64,000 bases of DNA from a virus (IMGVR_UViG_3300028591_000072:238582-302581), one strand, 5' to 3'; counted from the stretch's first letter, positions 78-31,751 are shown. Numbers and translations: made by a program. The notes: generated from the letters alone by a model not told the origin.

Positions 78-923
78 ATGGAAAAGAAAGAAATTTCTAA
101 AGAAAAGAAAAAACGTAAGAAAAGTAAGCCAAAAAAGAAAAAAAGGCCAATTGGTAGGCCAAAAAAACGTGGCCCTAAGAAGAAATACAGAAAAAAGAAA
201 AAAGTTCTTAAAAAAAGAGGGAGAAAAGCATTACCACCATTTGCATATAAAATTATTTCGTGCAAAAACGGAAAGCAAAACAAATTGGTGGGAAAATATA
301 GGGATATAAAGGAAGCATATGCCGTTTTTGATGAATTGAAAGAAGAAAGTAAAAAAGTTGTGTTTCCAATGTCTTTTACTGGATGCGAAGAGTTAAAAAA
401 TTCAATAGATGAATATATATTGATTGAGAAGAGTGAAACCAAAGAAAGTTCCATGTTAAGAAATGAATATGGGGTTATTGTAGAGCATAAGACAAATTTA
501 GACGGGTGGGTTATTTTGGATAAATTTAGATATGCTAGGGAGGAGACTTTTTGGGTTTGGGGATATAGTAACAATCGTGACAGAAAGACTTTCATGTGGA
601 TTTTTGAAAATCTTATACTCGATTCGTTTGACAATGTTTATGACTATAAAAGGGTGTGTACATATAAAAACAAGGTCGTTATAAAATCCGATGACGGATA
701 CATGGATATAGTGTTTTGCAAATCTATGGAAGACGCTGTAAGATTTTATAATTTGTTGGAAAAGCATTCAAAGAAGAATAAATTAAAACGAATGCTATTT
801 ATTGGGGATTTTAGTAAATTTGGGAAACAACGTCTCAAACTTGAGTCTGAATTGATTGAATTTACTGGCTTGCCAAAGGAAAAAATACGCATGAAAAACA
901 ATAGCTTTTTCTTAAAAAAATGA
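78..923 (+). CDS. Hypothetical protein with Lys/Arg-rich N-terminus
   Basis: 281-aa ORF with AT-hook-like GRPKKRGP in a very basic N-terminus; no family recognised. Confidence 0.75.
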   Translation: MEKKEISKEKKKRKKSKPKKKKRPIGRPKKRGPKKKYRKKKKVLKKRGRKALPPFAYKIISCKNGKQNKLVGKYRDIKEAYAVFDELKEESKKVVFPMSFTGCEELKNSIDEYILIEKSETKESSMLRNEYGVIVEHKTNLDGWVILDKFRYAREETFWVWGYSNNRDRKTFMWIFENLILDSFDNVYDYKRVCTYKNKVVIKSDDGYMDIVFCKSMEDAVRFYNLLEKHSKKNKLKRMLFIGDFSKFGKQRLKLESELIEFTGLPKEKIRMKNNSFFLKK

Positions 924-5766: not shown

Positions 5767-6811
5767 CGTAATTGAAAGTTGTTTTTAATATGTTTTTATG
5801 ATTTAATGTTTCATCGTCACCCGCAAACGGGACATCGTATTGGTAGTTTCCCGCATTACTTGTTGCTGTTGCCTCTTTTATATAGTCAATTTGTTCTTGA
5901 GTTAAATATACGCTTTTTCTTTTTATTGGTTTTCCGAATAGTGGTGTTGTAAATTGTCCGCTACTTTGTGCGTTTGTAGCACCAGCAACACCATCCATAG
6001 TTCCACCACCAACAGAACCGCCTTCGCCTTCTTCATTTATTCTTCTTTGTGCAATTGGCGTTTGTTCTGGCGTTGGAATTTCTTTCTGTGCGTTCATTAT
6101 GTCATCCTGATATTGCAATAATGAAACATCCTTGAGGACTTTTTTCAAACTTGATTTTATTTTTCTTGGCTCATCCCAAGAAGATACAAACTCTTCGTTG
6201 TTATATAAACTCCTTACTGCGTTTTTAACTAATTTAATTGCGTATGTGTATTTGTCGCTTAGTTGTATTTCATCGTCTTTGTATTTTTTAAGGAAATCAA
6301 CCAAAACGCCAACGTGTGCCCATAAATTTTGGAAATCATATGAATACATTGAGTTTGAAACATTTGAACACAATACATTTAATGAAATTCCTGCAAATTC
6401 AGATTGTAAATCAAGTGCTGAATCGTTTTGTAGAATGTCATAACCCCAAGCGCCCTCTTCTAATGTTCTTGCTATTAAATTTTGTTCAAACAAATTAGTG
6501 TATAAGTTTCTTAACTTTTTCTTAAAGTCTTTTCTTGGTATGCAATATTTTATTTCAAATGTATCTTTATTTCTGTTTCCATTTTCATCATATCCATTAT
6601 CCTTTATTCGTTCATTTCTTATGATAATTGCACTGTATTCATCATTTGGGTCTGTTTTCATTAAAAGCATTTTAAGTGCTGATGGGGCATCAATACCAAA
6701 TCCATGCAAGAAATCGTCAGTATCTGCCTTTAATGGTTGATTTAACAATTCTTTCATGTAGTCTTTCATGTGCTCAATGAAAGCATATCGTGTCATTTTT
6801 TCTTTACCCAT
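5759..6811 (-). CDS. Hypothetical protein, possible internal head protein
   Basis: 350-aa ORF with INEEG, LEEG and VYLTQEQ-type segments. Confidence 0.7.
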   Translation of the reverse strand: MGKEKMTRYAFIEHMKDYMKELLNQPLKADTDDFLHGFGIDAPSALKMLLMKTDPNDEYSAIIIRNERIKDNGYDENGNRNKDTFEIKYCIPRKDFKKKLRNLYTNLFEQNLIARTLEEGAWGYDILQNDSALDLQSEFAGISLNVLCSNVSNSMYSYDFQNLWAHVGVLVDFLKKYKDDEIQLSDKYTYAIKLVKNAVRSLYNNEEFVSSWDEPRKIKSSLKKVLKDVSLLQYQDDIMNAQKEIPTPEQTPIAQRRINEEGEGGSVGGGTMDGVAGATNAQSSGQFTTPLFGKPIKRKSVYLTQEQIDYIKEATATSNAGNYQYDVPFAGDDETLNHKNILKTTFNYDE

Positions 6812-24001: not shown

Positions 24002-24085
24002 GGGGTTGTAACCGGTAATTGGTAGCCGAAAGGTCTGTAAAACCTTTCCCTTTTGGGACTGGTGGTTCGAGTCCACCCAACCCCA
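24002..24085 (+). tRNA. tRNA-Tyr(GTA)
   Basis: aaggt-ctgtaaa-acctt; long variable arm. Confidence 0.92.
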
Positions 24086-24166
24086 CGAATGTTCAGGTAG
24101 CGCCTGACTGAGTGCAGTTATACATCACGGGGAATCTGCACGAGAAAAAAACAAAAGGTCCGTCAA

Positions 24167-24295: not shown

Positions 24296-24452
24296 GGTGC
24301 TCTGGCAGATATGGTATATGCACTGGACTGAATACAGAGTAAACTGTAAATCAAACTCTATAGTAATTCAGTTGGTAGAAACGTGAGTCGGTGGTTCGAG
24401 TCCGCCCTATAGAGCAAATCCAGCTAAAGTGGTTCGAGTCCACTGGGCACCA
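24296..24452 (+). tRNA. tRNA-Phe(GAA) interrupted by an 84-nt insert (24333-24416) containing a nested tRNA-like fold
   Basis: Removing 24333-24416 restores ctgga-ctgaaaa-tccag and a complete cloverleaf. Confidence 0.85.
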
Positions 24453-24634: not shown

Positions 24635-24712
24635 GCGCTCGTAGCTCAGTTGGTAGATAGCACCACACTTTTAATGTGGGAGTCCTGGGTTCGAGTCCCA
24701 GCGGGCGCACCA
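24635..24712 (+). tRNA. tRNA-Lys(TTT)
   Basis: ccaca-cttttaa-tgtgg; encoded CCA. Confidence 0.93.
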
Positions 24713-26097: not shown

Positions 26098-26105
26098 TAT
26101 ATATT

Positions 26106-26278
26106 ACTCCTATAGTTCAAGGGATAGAACGGAAGTTTCCTATACAAGAGTAAACTTGTTAAAATCAAAACTTCATGTTGGTGAAGATGGTCACACGTGC
26201 GTTAAAATGTCTACACGATGGTTCGAGTCCATCACATGAAGCAAACTTCTAATCTTGGTTCGAGTCCAAGTAGGAGTA
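26106..26278 (+). tRNA. tRNA-Arg(CCT) interrupted by a 101-nt insert (26143-26243) containing a nested tRNA-like fold
   Basis: Removing the insert restores gaagt-ttcctaa-acttc and a complete cloverleaf. Confidence 0.85.
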
Positions 26279-26802: not shown

Positions 26803-26819
26803 CAGTTGTAATTGAAATT

Positions 26820-26941
26820 TGGGATGTGGTGTAATGGTAGCACACGTAGCACTTTATGATTTCAGACACGGAATTTTACAGCAATTATTTTAGCGATGAA
26901 TTTGGGTTTCCGTGGTTTTGGTTCGATTCCAGACATCCCGA
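26820..26941 (+). ncRNA. tRNA-Pro(TGG) body with a 51-nt CAGCAA-handle insert (26847-26897)
   Basis: Removing the insert restores cggaa-tttgggt-ttccg; insert holds gatttc-agacac-ggaatt-ttacagcaa. Confidence 0.75.
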
Positions 26942-26951
26942 CTAATATGAT

Positions 26952-27711: not shown

Positions 27712-27779
27712 GAAAACCTAACAGCAATTTTTAGTAAAAAATCAGAACTTTCACTTCCGACAATAACTAATGGTTTTCG
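27712..27779 (+). ncRNA. CAGCAA-handle RNA carrying a tRNA-Glu(TTC)-type anticodon stem-loop
   Basis: gaaaacc-taacagcaa ... tcagaa-ctttcac-ttccga ... ggttttc-g. Confidence 0.75.
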
Positions 27780-27846
27780 TTTTTAATAAAAGGTGACACT
27801 TTTAGGATTTTTTGCACACCGATAGACAAGGTAAAAATCCAAGTAA

Positions 27847-27999
27847 GCCTCTTTAGTATAAAGGTTATTACACTTGACTTGTACATCAGAAGGAACTGAT
27901 TAAAACCAAGCTATATTTGAAAGACAAAGCATATGCTGAAACAGCGATAGTTTCATATAGCTCAATCATGAGATGGCAGTTCGATTCTGCCAAGAGGCT
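27847..27999 (+). tRNA. tRNA-Thr(TGT) interrupted by an 81-nt insert (27884-27964) with tRNA-like geometry
   Basis: Removing the insert restores cttga-cttgtaa-tcatg; acceptor gcctctt/aagaggc. Confidence 0.8.
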
Positions 28000-28001
28000 C
28001 T

Positions 28002-28118
28002 AAAATCTTCGAGGGATTGATGCTTGGTTTAGTGTTTTGGTTACCTGACGAGGTAAACTGAGACAATAATAAGGAGTAAGAAGGAAGCATGCACTTGGCT
28101 TACTGTGTAGAAGATTTT
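28002..28118 (+). ncRNA. Unknown end-paired structured RNA
   Basis: aaaatcttc/gaagatttt; internal ttacct-gacg-aggtaa. Confidence 0.55.
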
Positions 28119-28123
28119 TTAAT

Positions 28124-28195
28124 GCGTTGTTAGTACAACGGTCAGTATATGGGCTTCCCAAGCCTAAGATGTCAGTTCGATTCTGATACAGCGCT
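28124..28195 (+). tRNA. tRNA-Gly(CCC)
   Basis: tgggc-ttcccaa-gccta. Confidence 0.92.
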
Positions 28196-28200
28196 CAAAT

Positions 28201-28344
28201 ACGGTGCGTAGTTTACGATATGGGTTTGACACGAACTGGAAGCATGGGCATCAGAGCCGTGCACGAAAGAGAATCAGGAGTGAAGCCTGACTAAACAACT
28301 ATATCAAAGAATGGTACGAAGACCTGGTGACAAGAACTCACCGT
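28201..28344 (+). ncRNA. Unknown end-paired structured RNA
   Basis: acggtg/caccgt; internal gcatgg/ccgtgc and tcagg/cctga. Confidence 0.55.
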
Positions 28345-28387
28345 TACTTGTTAAAAAAGGACCTCATCAGTAGTATCATTTAGATTT

Positions 28388-28469
28388 ACCTCAGTACCCG
28401 AACTGGTATAGGGACTACACTTAGGATGTAGCGGCTGAGCCACTGTGGGTTCGACTCCCACCTGGGGTA
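28388..28469 (+). tRNA. tRNA-Leu(TAG)
   Basis: ctaca-cttagga-tgtag. Confidence 0.92.
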
Positions 28470-28624
28470 CAAAAATAAATGGGTGAAGCTTTGTTATTGA
28501 AGCCATGGATTTTACCGTGAGAAGACGAATGTCCGCCCAAAAACACAGAGGAACTTGCCAAATTGATACTGTACAGCTTTTGGTAATAAGGATAAGTAGA
28601 CTCAGAAGGTTATATTCCTTATAT

Positions 28625-28696
28625 GCGGTGTTAGTACAACGGTTAGTATATCAGCTTGCCATGCTGAAGATGTCAGTTCGATTCTGATACACCGCT
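28625..28696 (+). tRNA. tRNA-Gly(GCC)
   Basis: tcagc-ttgccat-gctga. Confidence 0.93.
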
Positions 28697-28698
28697 CA

Positions 28699-28786
28699 AG
28701 GAAACATGCAGCAATCTTTCTCAGGTTGAAAATTTTGACTGTAAATCAAATAAGGTGGTTCGAGTCCACAAAAATATTGTTTCCTG
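28699..28786 (+). ncRNA. CAGCAA-handle RNA carrying a Tyr(GTA) anticodon stem-loop and a T arm
   Basis: aggaaac-atgcagcaa ... tttga-ctgtaaa-tcaaa, gtgg-ttcgagt-ccac ... gtttcct-g. Confidence 0.78.
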
Positions 28787-28793
28787 TTTTTAT

Positions 28794-28867
28794 GGGAGAG
28801 TAGCGTAGCTGGTTAGCGCAACGGACTGTTAATCCGTGGGTCGTGGGTTCGATTCCCACCTCTCCCG
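28794..28867 (+). tRNA. tRNA-Asn(GTT)
   Basis: acgga-ctgttaa-tccgt. Confidence 0.92.
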
Positions 28868-28872
28868 CTTGA

Positions 28873-29005
28873 AGAAATCTAACAGCAATTAATAAATTCG
28901 TTTGACTGTAAATCAAAAGGTTGTGGGTTCGAGTCCCGCTGTCGCCAAAGATTATATTAGTTGAAGGCGACATAGCTCAATGGTAGAGAAAGAAAATGAT
29001 TTCTG
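28873..29005 (+). ncRNA. CAGCAA-handle RNA enclosing a circularly permuted tRNA-Tyr(GTA)
   Basis: 3' part (28899-28947) precedes 5' part (28966-28988); acceptor ggcgaca/tgtcgcc; handle agaaatc-taacagcaa ... gatttct-g. Confidence 0.85.
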
Positions 29006-29035
29006 AGAAAAACAATGACGCTTAACCGTCAGAAC

Positions 29036-29188
29036 ATGTTTCTAAATTCATTAAAGATTTAGCGCACTTGTAGAGCGATAGGACTACACCTAAACCGAGG
29101 TGAGTGGTGAAGTACCGAGGAAGCTTTATTTGAAAGGTTACGAGCTCTTAAACAGATGATGGCATAGTTAAGAAGGTGCCATAAACAT
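29036..29188 (+). ncRNA. Unknown multi-hairpin RNA
   Basis: atgttt/aaacat closing stem; cacct/aggtg, atggcat/gtgccat, ctaaatt/gatttag. Confidence 0.5.
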
Positions 29189-29201
29189 TTCTTTTTAATA
29201 T

Positions 29202-29274
29202 GGGGGTATGGTTGAATGGCTACAATGCGGGCTTGTCACGCCCTGTGGTGCGGGTTCGAATCCCGTTATCCCCG
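29202..29274 (+). tRNA. tRNA-Asp(GTC)
   Basis: gggc-ttgtcac-gccc; G73. Confidence 0.9.
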
Positions 29275-29353
29275 CAATATTGGGGTTTCGAAAAAAAACG
29301 ATAAAATTGCGTATAATTTGGCTTTCGAAACTATTTATAATAAAACAAAGTTT

Positions 29354-30073
29354 ATGTGTGATGGTTTAAATTTTAAATGTAAACAGTGTGGCGTAACATT
29401 TGAAAAAACAAAGTCTGAGTTATCAAAAAACCATAATGTTGTTCCTGTCTTTTGTTCTAAAGACTGTCAACAAAAATGGTATAAAGAAAATTCGTATATA
29501 ACTGTAGAATGCAAATGTTGTGGAAAAGAATTTACAATAAAAAAAGGTGAATACAATAAAAATAAAAACAAAAACTTTTTTTGTTCACATTCTTGTGCTG
29601 CTAAATTTAATAATAAAACTAGAACAATAAAAAAAACTGTTTTTGAAAAAGATAACAAAATTAAAATATCTAAAAAGAAAGAAGATATATATGGTGTATG
29701 TCCAATTTGCGGAAATAAAAAATTTAAGAAATCAATATTGTGCAAAAAATGTAGAAACGAGCAAAAAAGAAATAACATAAAAAAGAGAACACTTGGATAT
29801 TTTATTGAAGGAAAAAAATATTTGGGTTCAAAATGTAATGAAATAAGAAAAGACGCAAAGAGAACAATTGAAGAAAGCTGTGTCGAAAAAACTTGTGCAT
29901 ATTGTCATAACCACGAGTTTGATGGCATATTAGAAGTACATCATATAAAAGGAATTTTGGAGTTTGATAAAAGCACGACAATAGAAGAAATAAATGATAT
30001 TAATAACCTTGTTTGGTTATGTCCAAATCATCACAGGATGCTTGAACTTGGATTAATTAAACTTGAAAAATAG
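29354..30073 (+). CDS. HNH homing endonuclease with zinc-finger repeats
   Basis: CxxC...FCS..C repeats; LEVHHI...NLVWLCPNHH; start moved to 29354 because the longer frame overlaps tRNA-Asp and ACTATTTAT lies at 29330. Confidence 0.85.
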   Translation: MCDGLNFKCKQCGVTFEKTKSELSKNHNVVPVFCSKDCQQKWYKENSYITVECKCCGKEFTIKKGEYNKNKNKNFFCSHSCAAKFNNKTRTIKKTVFEKDNKIKISKKKEDIYGVCPICGNKKFKKSILCKKCRNEQKRNNIKKRTLGYFIEGKKYLGSKCNEIRKDAKRTIEESCVEKTCAYCHNHEFDGILEVHHIKGILEFDKSTTIEEINDINNLVWLCPNHHRMLELGLIKLEK

Positions 30074-30079
30074 ATTAAA

Positions 30080-30209
30080 AGGAATTTAACAGCAAGTTAC
30101 AATAGGTAAACACATTTGTAAACAAAACAAAGATTGTTGGTTCGAGTCCAACTGCGGCTTTAGGGGAACCGATGGCTGCATAGTGAAATGGAAGATAAAT
30201 AGATTCCTG
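30080..30209 (+). ncRNA. CAGCAA-handle RNA with permuted T arm / closed acceptor stem / degenerate D arm (YrlA-like order)
   Basis: aggaatt-taacagcaa ... gttgg-ttcgagt-ccaac, tgcggct...ggctgca, tagtgaaatgg ... gattcct-g. Confidence 0.75.
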
Positions 30210-30338
30210 TAATCTAAAAAATATAAGGAAAGAAGGACACACGTACCTTAAACAAGTACGAAAAGTTAGTGCTGGCCACATAAAGTCGCCAAGCGTCTCA
30301 GGGTGGATGCACGATAGTGAAATGTAAATTTCTTAGAT

Positions 30339-30411
30339 GGGGAGTTCATTTAGCGGTTTAGGATGCAGGTTCGACAGACCTGTCACTATGGTTCGATTCC
30401 ATAACACCCCA
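30339..30411 (+). tRNA. Atypical tRNA, nominal Val(GAC), with C33 and G38
   Basis: caggt-tcgacag-acctg; one acceptor mismatch; body resembles Glu/Gln/Asp-type tRNAs. Confidence 0.6.
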
Positions 30412-30415
30412 CAAT

Positions 30416-30650
30416 CGGTTTGTTGTTGATAATCAAAGGAAAGTTGAGTTGGACATGGGTTCGAGTCCCATATGGTCCACTAAGTAATTGATTTTCAAGT
30501 AAATACGGGCCATCTTGGTTTTGACAGCTAATGAGTACAATGGAAGTAGACATCCGAGATGCCATAAAATAACTGGCAACGAAAATTATGCTTATGCTTA
30601 TGCAGCAGCCTAAGGCAGTGCATTGAGCAGGTTGGCAGCGAACCAAATCG
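30416..30650 (+). ncRNA. ssrA: Circularly permuted (two-piece) tmRNA
   Basis: Acceptor piece gac-atggg-ttcgagt-cccat-atggtcc-a ends at 30479, before the coding piece gggccat-cttggttttgacag at 30507; G3:U70; tag ataact-GNENYAYAYAAA* (30575-30613). Confidence 0.9.
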
Positions 30651-30658
30651 CTGCACAT

Positions 30659-30734
30659 GGTCGGTTCGTCTAGTCTGGCCTAGGACATCAGGTTTTCATC
30701 CTGGGAATCATGGGTTCAAATCCCATACCGACTA
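30659..30734 (+). tRNA. tRNA-Glu(TTC)
   Basis: tcagg-ttttcat-cctgg. Confidence 0.92.
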
Positions 30735-30740
30735 CATCCA

Positions 30741-30945
30741 GATAACTACAAATCTGCATTGGCAAAGTTGCTTTCCATAACAATGTGCAACCAGTTTCAG
30801 CGTTTCAACTGTAAAAATGCGAGATTTTTATTTGTTTGGCTAAACGAAAACAAATCCTTATAGTTGGTATATTGGTAAAAAAGGCGGAATGGTAGATAAC
30901 CGTTTTTATCCAACATTTATGGCGATTCATGATGTAGCCATAAAA
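30741..30945 (+). ncRNA. Unknown multi-hairpin RNA(s)
   Basis: gttgc/gcaac, cagtt/aactg, atttgtt/aacaaat, aaaggcgg/ccgttttt, tttatggc/gccataaa. Confidence 0.5.
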
Positions 30946-30946
30946 T

Positions 30947-31020
30947 CGGCCTGTAGCTCAGTTGGTTAGAGCATCACACTGATAATGTGGGGGTCGGTGG
31001 TTCGAGTCCACCCTGGCCGA
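30947..31020 (+). tRNA. tRNA-Ile(GAT)
   Basis: tcaca-ctgataa-tgtgg. Confidence 0.93.
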
Positions 31021-31077
31021 CAAAATTTACAAATTTATTTGTTCTTTTAAAAAATAGTTTGTATATTTAAAATAAAG

Positions 31078-31210
31078 AAAGTAAAAATCCCACCAAGGGC
31101 GAAACAATTGGTGGTTAGTTCTATCCCGTTAGTAATCACGGTCACAAGGTAGGAGATAAAGAACTGTAAGAGGCTCAGAAGTCGGATGACAAGAAACGAT
31201 AGTTCACTTT
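31078..31210 (+). ncRNA. Unknown structured RNA
   Basis: aaagt/acttt ends; ccaccaa/ttggtgg, agttct/agaact; follows a tttgtatattt promoter-like motif. Confidence 0.5.
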
Positions 31211-31216
31211 CTAAAT

Positions 31217-31290
31217 GGGCCCATGCCTTCAATTGGTACAGGACCGCCTTTGCACGGCGACATTTATCGGTTCGAATCCGATTGGGTCCA
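31217..31290 (+). tRNA. tRNA-Ala(TGC)
   Basis: cgcc-tttgcac-ggcg; G3:U70. Confidence 0.9.
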
Positions 31291-31309
31291 CATCTTTATT
31301 ATTATTATA

Positions 31310-31455
31310 ATATGAAGATGGTAGCGCCACAACGTAACGTAATTGGTCCCTGATGTTCTTCAAACCAATTCCCTATCGTAGTTAGGGTAAAGTCTTTACA
31401 CGAGTTTCTATAATACGAAAGCCAAAATGTACAGTTTATGTCGGAAGAAACTCTT
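31310..31455 (+). ncRNA. Unknown multi-hairpin RNA
   Basis: aattggt/accaatt, cccta/taggg, gagtttct/agaaactc. Confidence 0.45.
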
Positions 31456-31461
31456 TATAAT

Positions 31462-31586
31462 GCCAAGGTAGCTCAGTGGTTTAGAGCAATGGGAGTGTAT
31501 AAATGATTTTTGATTAAAAATCTAACAGCAACTTCCAAATACCTATGTAAACCCATTGGTCGGAGGTTCGAATCCTTCTCTTGGCT
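31462..31586 (+). ncRNA. tRNA body (Thr-like acceptor, loop remnant tgtaaa) with the CAGCAA handle inserted in the anticodon loop
   Basis: Intact acceptor, D and T arms; atggg/cccat stem encloses gattttt-gatt-aaaaatc-taacagcaa. Confidence 0.78.
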
Positions 31587-31594
31587 CAAAAAAT

Positions 31595-31671
31595 GCATGT
31601 ATGAAAGCAGACGGGATGTGCTTCTGTCGTAATTCGGACAGGATATGTTGGTTCGAATCCAACTGCATGCG
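31595..31671 (+). ncRNA. tRNA-like RNA with 8-nt non-canonical anticodon loop
   Basis: gcatgta/tgcatgc, 5-bp D stem aagca/tgctt, ctgtc-gtaattcg-gacag, canonical T arm. Confidence 0.7.
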
Positions 31672-31676
31672 CAATA

Positions 31677-31751
31677 GGAAAACATACAGCAAGTTTTATC
31701 AAATTCAAGTTACAATCTTTTAAATTGTGGGACTAAATTTTTTGTTTTCCG
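31677..31751 (+). ncRNA. CAGCAA-handle RNA carrying a tRNA-Lys(TTT) anticodon stem-loop
   Basis: ggaaaac-atacagcaa ... acaat-cttttaa-attgt ... gttttcc-g. Confidence 0.8.

Follow-up and report, generated by a model that had tools for sequence, protein, structure and literature searches.

Results

Short handle RNAs in a phage tRNA array

The stretch of DNA analysed here (64,000 nucleotides, IMGVR_UViG_3300028591_000072:238582-302581; hereafter the window) is the terminal 64 kb of a 302.6-kb IMG/VR virus record from a rumen jumbo phage, linear and estimated to be 82% complete, for which we found no near relative in the phage GenBank collection; the RNA-library runs that hold the record are sheep and cattle gut metatranscriptomes. 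At 23.6-33.6 kb the window carries a tRNA array with 25 tRNAs (by ARAGORN), a permuted transfer-messenger RNA (tmRNA) and two HNH reading frames, and within this array lie three short elements, M_a, M_b and M_f, with which we are mainly concerned. Each has its ends clamped by a 7-8-bp stem, has a single-stranded heptanucleotide, ACAGCAA or a variant of it (the handle), after the 5' strand of that stem, and holds as cargo a mimic of a tRNA anticodon arm that cannot be aminoacylated (Table 1). Judging by their sequences, the three elements are genes for small, hairpin-like non-coding RNAs of a family distinguished by the closing stem and the handle, and we tentatively propose below that such RNAs present anticodon arms as bait.

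The preliminary description of the window had reported three canonical 7-nt anticodon loops on handle stems, and all three were found where it had placed them. It was also right in that the elements are not chargeable, since no acceptor end is present in any of them and neither ARAGORN nor Rfam calls a tRNA there, and in that intact genes for tRNA-Glu, tRNA-Tyr and tRNA-Lys lie nearby. M_b, which lacks a D arm and an acceptor stem, has a T arm beside its anticodon arm and is therefore not a bare anticodon arm. The loop of M_a differs from the UUUUCAU loop of the phage's own tRNA-Glu; CUUUCAC is the common bacterial type of Glu loop, as in E. coli tRNA-Glu, and we have counted it in favour of the bait proposal. 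Even with permissive thresholds, Rfam did not assign the three elements to a family; the only matches were weak ones to YrlA and Class I RNA, such as that of M_a, end to end (27712-27778), to Class I RNA at 13.4 bits. The arm of M_a forms only four of its five stem pairs (one is A.C) and that of M_f has 7 bp including two G.U; the folding z-scores of M_a, M_b and M_f are -0.39, -1.83 and -2.43. Because folds of single elements are this weak, the case depends on comparison with relatives.

Table 1. Handle members and intact tRNA genes of matching anticodon in the window (positions counted from its first nucleotide).
Feature	Position	Strand	Closing stem	Spacer	Handle	Cargo or other content
M_a	27712-27778	+	27712-27718/27772-27778 (7 Watson-Crick bp)	UA	ACAGCAA, 27721-27727	Glu-type arm 27743-27759, loop CUUUCAC 27748-27754
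M_b	28700-28785	+	28700-28706/28779-28785 (7 bp)	U	GCAGCAA (variant), 28708-28714	Tyr-type arm 28734-28750, loop CUGUAAA; T arm 28755-28769
M_f	31677-31750	+	31677-31684/31743-31750 (8 bp)	U	ACAGCAA, 31686-31692	Lys-type arm 31710-31730, loop CUUUUAA 31717-31723
M_c (long member)	28873-29004	+	28873-28879/28998-29004		ACAGCAA, 28882-28888	Circularly permuted tRNA-Tyr-like body, 28889-28997
M_d (long member)	30080-30208	+	30080-30088/30200-30208 (9 bp)		ACAGCAA, 30089-30095	Permuted tRNA-like
M_e	31462-31586	+			ACAGCAA, 31525-31531	tRNA, anticodon GUA; insert of hairpin and handle 5' to the anticodon loop
M_g	26819-26945	+			ACAGCAA, 26878-26884	tRNA-like gene broken by stem and handle
tRNA-Tyr(GUA)	24002-24086	+				Intact, class II (ARAGORN, Rfam)
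tRNA-Lys(UUU)	24635-24712	+				Intact (ARAGORN, Rfam)
tRNA-Glu(UUC)	30659-30735	+				Intact, loop UUUUCAU (ARAGORN, Rfam)

A family of handle RNAs across phages

IMG/VR was scanned for ACAGCAA with a T-loop 25-50 nt downstream, which gave at least 120 loci, and the family statistics refer to these loci together with the window. ACAGCAA occurs 582 times in this set against 115-257 times for four scrambled 7-mers, and a closing stem adjoins 53% of the 582 sites against 12-23% for the scrambled sequences. The set yields at least 300 distinct members. The family is marked by a 6-10-bp closing stem with ACAGCAA starting 0-3 nt after its 5' strand; M_a and M_f have this arrangement as it stands, and M_b has it with one change in the handle, which in its orthologue in the relative L081 reads ACAGCAA.

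Among the matches listed, the stem next to the handle is constrained, with G at -7 (71%), A at -6 and C at -3, and a consensus near RRGAYNC-WW-ACAGCAA; the cargo is bimodal in length, at 30-60 nt and 90-110 nt; and the short class, which lacks a T loop, makes up ~40% of the family. In the long class, the anticodon arm is followed by a T arm, then by an acceptor stem whose closing loop mostly measures 1-7 nt, and finally by a D arm. A canonical anticodon arm (stem of at least 5 bp, 7-nt loop, U33 and a purine at 37) is present in 47 of the 126 short members among the matches listed, whereas 200 shuffles of the cargo gave a mean of 5.6 and never more than 11. At the level of the family, chance is excluded as the source of the canonical arms and closing stems, and bare anticodon arms on a handle are thus a recurrent design, not a quirk of one phage.

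The closing stems are alike within one phage (GRAAAYC-like in the window) and unlike between phages (L114, L021, L105, L091/L100/L120), and the ACAGCAA is universal; this pattern points to concerted evolution of the stems or to their co-evolution with a phage-specific partner.

The family is absent from Rfam, and among the papers searched, on the handle, on phage anticodon stem-loop decoys and on permuted or interrupted phage tRNAs, we found no description of it. The 'enigmatic' tRNA introns of Lak megaphages were considered as the same insert and rejected, as their supplementary intron table is without ACAGCAA, which makes them a different insert type. Hammerhead, twister, pistol and hatchet ribozymes, CRISPR-repeat-like processing, integron attC sites, IS200/605-type DNA elements, invertible DNA segments, and base pairing between the handle and either the nearby group I-like RNAs or the tmRNA were all dropped because motifs or geometry do not match. 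As a side observation, one family-bearing locus, L056, also holds a full ROOL RNA among its tRNAs (5852-6477, minus strand, 323 bits) and a partial OLE-like match (187-276, minus strand, 52.9 bits).

The displayed anticodons

Among the matches listed, 38 distinct arms could be set against a background of 875 distinct tRNA genes from the same loci. They read Lys UUU (6), Asn GUU (6), Gln UUG (5), Pro (5), Cys (3), Ser GCU (3), Ser UGA (2) and Phe (2), with a single Tyr and a single Thr. None reads Met, Leu, Val, Ala, Gly, Arg, His, Asp or Trp, which together account for 45% of the background genes. Lys(UUU) and Asn(GUU), a grouping made post hoc, take up 12 of 38 arms against 75 of 875 tRNA genes (8.6%; odds ratio 4.9, p = 9e-5), and Lys(UUU) alone 6 of 38 against 31 of 875 (p = 0.003); in other phages, six or more distinct handles bear a Lys(UUU) arm. 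The repertoire of cargoes is strongly skewed and non-random. The expectation that known nuclease targets would be enriched was borne out in part: Lys(UUU) and Asn(GUU), targets of PrrC, AriB and colicin E5, are favoured, but the Glu/Tyr/Lys set displayed in the window is not (7 of 38 against 96 of 875, p = 0.13), and neither is the colicin E5 target set as a whole.

The skew also bears on the idea that the RNA is a codon-specific ligand of the ribosome, its arm pairing with the codon where the A or P site is empty (as on ribosomes stalled at AAA or AAU when the tRNAs are depleted) and bringing the ring protein there. Isolated anticodon stem-loops bind 30S decoding sites, the cargo favours the codons most used by AT-rich phages, and a permuted tmRNA lies in the same array. 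Binding would, however, be weak without EF-Tu, and YrlA-like cargo without an anticodon arm would be left unexplained; we regard this idea as highly improbable.

That the arms were copied from tRNAs of the phage itself was considered and rejected: between an arm and its nearest real counterpart, 2-6 of 17 positions differ, and the stems of the cargo are richer in A and U. The conserved part is the loop; the AU-rich arm stems are unlike real tRNA stems. Comparison of orthologues shows how the loop itself varies. In contigs of related phages from two RNA libraries, M_a is changed at 27750 and 27752 (positions 34 and 36), converting UUC to GUA. In the close relative L081, the orthologue of M_b (83% identity) keeps stem, handle and T arm, and its re-paired arm reads Phe(GAA) in place of GUA, and M_c keeps an identical stem and handle around a cargo replaced by a T arm, a closed acceptor stem and a D arm without an anticodon arm. 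In the six related loci of the L123 group, an invariant 10-bp handle stem carries arms that read GUU, GCU or UGA; in two of the five arm pairs both partners have changed, in a compensatory way, and pairing is kept in 99% of cells. In the nearest relatives, the Glu and Tyr identities of M_a and M_b are lost. Against the refuting condition of the preliminary description, loops random or unconserved in homologues, the loops proved not to be random and keep their frame; the triplet within that frame is not simply conserved but exchanged. Retention of U33 and a purine at 37 together with exchange of the triplet between orthologues leads us to conclude that it is the anticodon that appears to determine specificity, a property that a bait or decoy would need.

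The same comparisons speak to a less eventful account, in which the three elements are functionless, arm-deleted remnants of longer tRNA-like members. M_b does resemble a truncated version of its neighbour M_c (same arm sequence and T arm, acceptor gone) and has a point change in its handle, and the mismatch and weak fold of the M_a arm would suit decay as well. Against this, the short class forms a length mode of its own, its canonical arms are far above chance and their stems covary, the arm and T arm of M_b are kept in L081 with a new and still canonical anticodon, and arms identical over all 17 nt are shared by separate phages whose handles differ. Decay is in our view quite unlikely.

A candidate protein partner of the handle

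Of 10 family-bearing phage records, 8 encode a protein with DUF2828 and DUF7788/vWA, among them every one of the 7 whose completeness is 90% or more; at three of seven loci a handle RNA directly adjoins the DUF2828 gene. In a rough control of five arbitrary tRNA-bearing GenBank phages, DUF2828 was found only in Ralstonia phage RSP15, the one phage of the five in which handle closing stems were examined. RSP15 (LC121084) has two unannotated handle RNAs in its tRNA array at ~86.5-86.7 kb, ~1.6 kb from the DUF2828 gene (88285-88989): L145:636-763 has a permuted tRNA-like cargo, and L145:772-827 has the handle variant UCAGCAA and an Asn-like arm with the loop CCGUUAA. For an AlphaFold model of the DUF2828 protein (predicted local distance difference test score 73), the 13 best PDB matches are Ro60/TROVE structures, aligned over the full length, and a sequence profile weakly touches TROVE proteins. 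Stem and handle are probably a docking site for a Ro60-like protein, a point not made in the preliminary description, in which case the short RNAs would be components of ribonucleoproteins (RNPs) and not free decoys.

A Ro60-like partner would also suit a handle RNP that acts as an adaptor in tRNA care, using the anticodon arm or an entire tRNA mimic to recruit enzymes of tRNA modification, repair or decay, or to find damaged tRNAs, in parallel to the tethering of PNPase by Ro60 and Y RNA and to the bacterial rsr-yrlA-rtcB repair operon. Besides the predicted Ro60 fold, the sharing of the handle with cargo of YrlA type (T arm, closed acceptor, D arm) favours such a role. Every cargo anticodon presumably belongs to a tRNA heavily modified at position 34 or 37, which we have counted in its favour as well. 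However, general tRNA enzymes would not require that the anticodon be switched among close relatives, and many modified tRNAs (His, Asp, Trp, Leu, Arg) are missing from the repertoire. Neither RtcB, a tRNA splicing endonuclease nor an Rnl2-type ligase was found in the 302.6-kb record of the phage, and a T4 Rnl1-type ligase gave no match there, which is a weak negative since the control genome was also without a match. We consider the adaptor role rather unlikely, if still the foremost of the alternatives to arms displayed as bait.

The handle module inside ordinary tRNA genes

The hairpin with ACAGCAA also sits inside at least 41 otherwise normal tRNA genes (loci L009-L128; M_e and M_g are examples in the window). 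In every case the insert interrupts the anticodon stem within its 5' strand, and it is often preceded by CG and followed by UA, with 6-13 nt from the exon end to the hairpin. This suggests either a new small tRNA intron, with splicing, or tRNAs tagged with a handle.

If the former, stem and ACAGCAA might be a signal that marks two cuts ~6-12 nt to either side of the module, yielding spliced tRNAs from the interrupted genes, circular tRNA-like RNAs from the permuted ones, and a free or circular 17-35-nt anticodon hairpin from the short members. Such a signal would account for the fixed site and spacing in the 41 ordinary-looking genes; in permuted members, too, the anticodon stem is brought together across the module, over comparable distances, and the arms of the short class have ~9-12-nt spacers on both sides. 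The relevant RNA data are Logan contigs from four libraries, which hold neither strand, molecule ends nor levels and are thus uninformative on expression and processing. Among the joints listed in these libraries, no spliced or circular joint was found for any handle member (M_e, M_g, M_c and the short members included), although contigs can miss such forms, whereas two of the four show the splicing of an 81-nt intron that is of a different type. Nor is a known endonuclease or ligase found in the phage record. The acceptor stems of the permuted members are closed by 1-7-nt loops, as in YrlA, and a Ro60-like partner accounts for conservation of the handle without cleavage. We judge an intron-like signal to be unlikely.

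The 81-nt insert just mentioned (27883-27963) lies in a tRNA-Thr-like gene, 27848-27999, and is skipped by the joint 27882>27964 in contigs of two runs from different studies; it is apparently removed at the RNA level, or is absent in a variant. Two further contig joints, 28869>28994 and 31728>31755, come from divergent relatives and are not interpretable.

Further features of the array

The window holds seven handle members, all on the + strand, as are the tRNAs, and all within the tRNA array at 26.8-31.8 kb. The permuted body of the long member M_c runs from anticodon arm through T arm and loop-closed acceptor stem to D arm, and scores 26.8 bits with the Rfam YrlA model and 14.4 bits with that of Class I RNA. 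M_d is 98% identical in L081, where M_g also has an orthologue, and M_e matches the Rfam tRNA model at 50.5 bits across 125 nt. An HNH endonuclease frame at 29216-30073, between tRNA-Asp and M_d, is missing in the otherwise collinear L081, indicating an insertion or a deletion. Scrambled tRNA-like pieces of other insert types are present at 24296-24440 and 26100-26250, with a CUGUAAA-type loop at ~24343. The permuted, two-piece tmRNA gene occupies 30421-30613 (Rfam RF04321, 65 bits) and encodes the tag peptide GNENYAYAYAAA according to ARAGORN.

Discussion

A proposed role: anticodon arms as bait on a Ro-like handle

Our consideration of what the short handle RNAs do is necessarily tentative. 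The scenario that we favour, at a probability of roughly 0.45, is that they form Y-RNA-like particles that present anticodon arms as bait on a Ro-like handle. Stem and handle would dock onto a Ro60-shaped ring protein with DUF2828 and a vWA domain, which might be encoded in the unsequenced 18% of the phage or be supplied by the host, unless a different partner takes its place. The anticodon arm would then be the specificity module, offering a chosen anticodon loop to a factor that reads loops, and the phage could change the displayed anticodon through cassette-like replacement. The most likely use of such a particle would be to titrate or tether host anticodon-specific enzymes, with tRNA-cutting defence nucleases as the first candidates, and the outcome would be that the real tRNAs of phage and host go on working.

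Within this scenario the leading use is that of an anti-defence particle, in which a Ro60-like ring, loaded through the ACAGCAA handle with interchangeable anticodon-arm RNAs, would capture or neutralise anticodon-specific host nucleases and a swap of the anticodon cassette would be the phage's move in an arms race with them. As loops for a nuclease decoy, those found are canonical, and Lys(UUU) is enriched in the family, though the Glu/Tyr/Lys set is not. AriB, the nuclease of PARIS, cuts the tRNAs for Lys(UUU), for Thr(UGU) and for Asn(GUU), and inhibition by overexpressed tRNAs has been raised by the authors of that study (PMC12409363). The commonest cargoes, Lys(UUU) and Asn(GUU), would fit these targets, by a parallel drawn from E. 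coli. Taken by itself, the anti-defence use seems to us rather unlikely. We know of no nuclease from the host of this phage, which is probably a member of the Bacteroidota.

Several facts weigh against bait particles as proposed here. The chief fact that a bait or decoy model leaves unaccounted for is the handle module in 41 ordinary tRNA genes. The arm of M_f differs from the minimum-free-energy fold, that of M_a is imperfect and thermodynamically weak, and the Glu/Tyr/Lys set shown by the three elements lacks enrichment. Because the cargo stems are AU-rich, a nuclease that reads the stem, such as AriB at positions 39-41, might refuse the arms, and stoichiometric decoys are poor inhibitors of catalytic nucleases. 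The RNA-library contigs cover the region without ends, levels or processing, and discrete RNAs from the elements are thus putative. Finally, no match to DUF2828, to TROVE or to a profile built from seven DUF2828 proteins was obtained in the 302.6-kb, 82%-complete record, in a search in which the DUF2828 control genome also gave no match.

Relation to known systems

The nearest parallel is perhaps with the YrlA-type Y RNAs of bacteria and phages that are bound by Ro60/Rsr (RF02553; Chen et al., 2014, PMC4201824). In both, stem-clamped ends form a protein handle and the cargo is a tRNA mimic that cannot be charged; the long members here follow the exact YrlA order of T arm, closed acceptor and D arm; the likely partner has a Ro60 fold and a vWA domain; and genes lie in phage tRNA regions. 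The handle itself is different, being ACAGCAA beside a plain stem, whereas the YrlA consensus has a bulged Ro-binding helix and no ACAGCAA. M_c falls far short of the gathering threshold of 69 bits, the three short elements give no match, and none of 14 family-bearing loci reaches the threshold. The YrlA tRNA-like domain is present in M_c and M_d, reduced to a T arm in M_b, and absent in M_a and M_f. The candidate partner belongs to DUF2828, not to Pfam TROVE, and the cargo can consist of the anticodon arm only, an arm that YrlA lacks.

The Class I RNAs of dictyostelid amoebae (RF01414; Kjellin et al., 2021, PMC7919456) likewise have a short stem that joins the 5' and 3' ends, followed right after the 5' strand by an 11-nt motif (Rfam consensus CUUACAGCAAU) that aligns to the handle, at 13 of 13 positions in one phage member. 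The rest of these RNAs is variable, and their size is 42-65 nt, compared with 67-86 nt for the three elements. They have been reported as confined to Dictyostelia, with a promoter element of their own and a partner protein with an RNA recognition motif (PMC7919456). In contrast to the RNAs described here, their source is not a phage and no anticodon-arm cargo has been described for them; Infernal gives only 12-14 bits here against a threshold of 41.5, and M_f has no match.

Phage tRNAs that counter anticodon nucleases (tRNA-Lys/Thr/Asn of T5 against AriB, PMC12409363; repair of PrrC damage in T4) share with the short members a phage origin, derivation from tRNA and particular anticodons, with Lys(UUU) and Asn(GUU) prominent, and a role as inhibitor has been proposed for overexpressed tRNA. 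They differ in that complete, chargeable tRNAs replace the cut ones, whereas the RNAs considered here lack an acceptor end and bear a protein handle. The permuted and interrupted tRNA genes of algae and archaea resemble M_c and M_d, in which the 3' half likewise precedes the 5' half with a helix of the ends at the break, and here too the module is inserted in unpermuted tRNA genes as well. Unlike in those systems, no bulge-helix-bulge motif or splicing endonuclease is seen here, the loops that close the acceptor are very short, and M_a, M_b and M_f have no tRNA body to restore.

Implications

Y RNAs that mimic tRNA and are bound by Ro60 were already known, and so was the handle motif, from amoebae; what is new is the handle in phages, DUF2828 as the candidate partner, cargo that consists of an arm only, and cassette-like switching of the anticodon. 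With RSP15 there is a cultured phage in which the protein gene is accompanied by two handle RNAs, of which one bears an Asn-like arm, and this opens the question to direct bench tests.

The family, similar to Y RNAs and Class I RNAs, is widespread in large phages and abundant in the jumbo phages of gut and rumen. Cutting of tRNA has come to be seen as one of the main routes of bacterial immunity, and phages are known to respond with spare tRNAs and with repair enzymes. If the scenario proposed here is true, RNAs that show an anticodon arm on a protein handle and cannot be charged would make a third response, and the Ro60-like proteins of phages would gain a concrete job. Through its handle motif the family also connects phages with the Class I RNAs of Dictyostelium, the function of which has been open for twenty years; if the anti-defence use is real, the chemistry of the handle would be shared with them.

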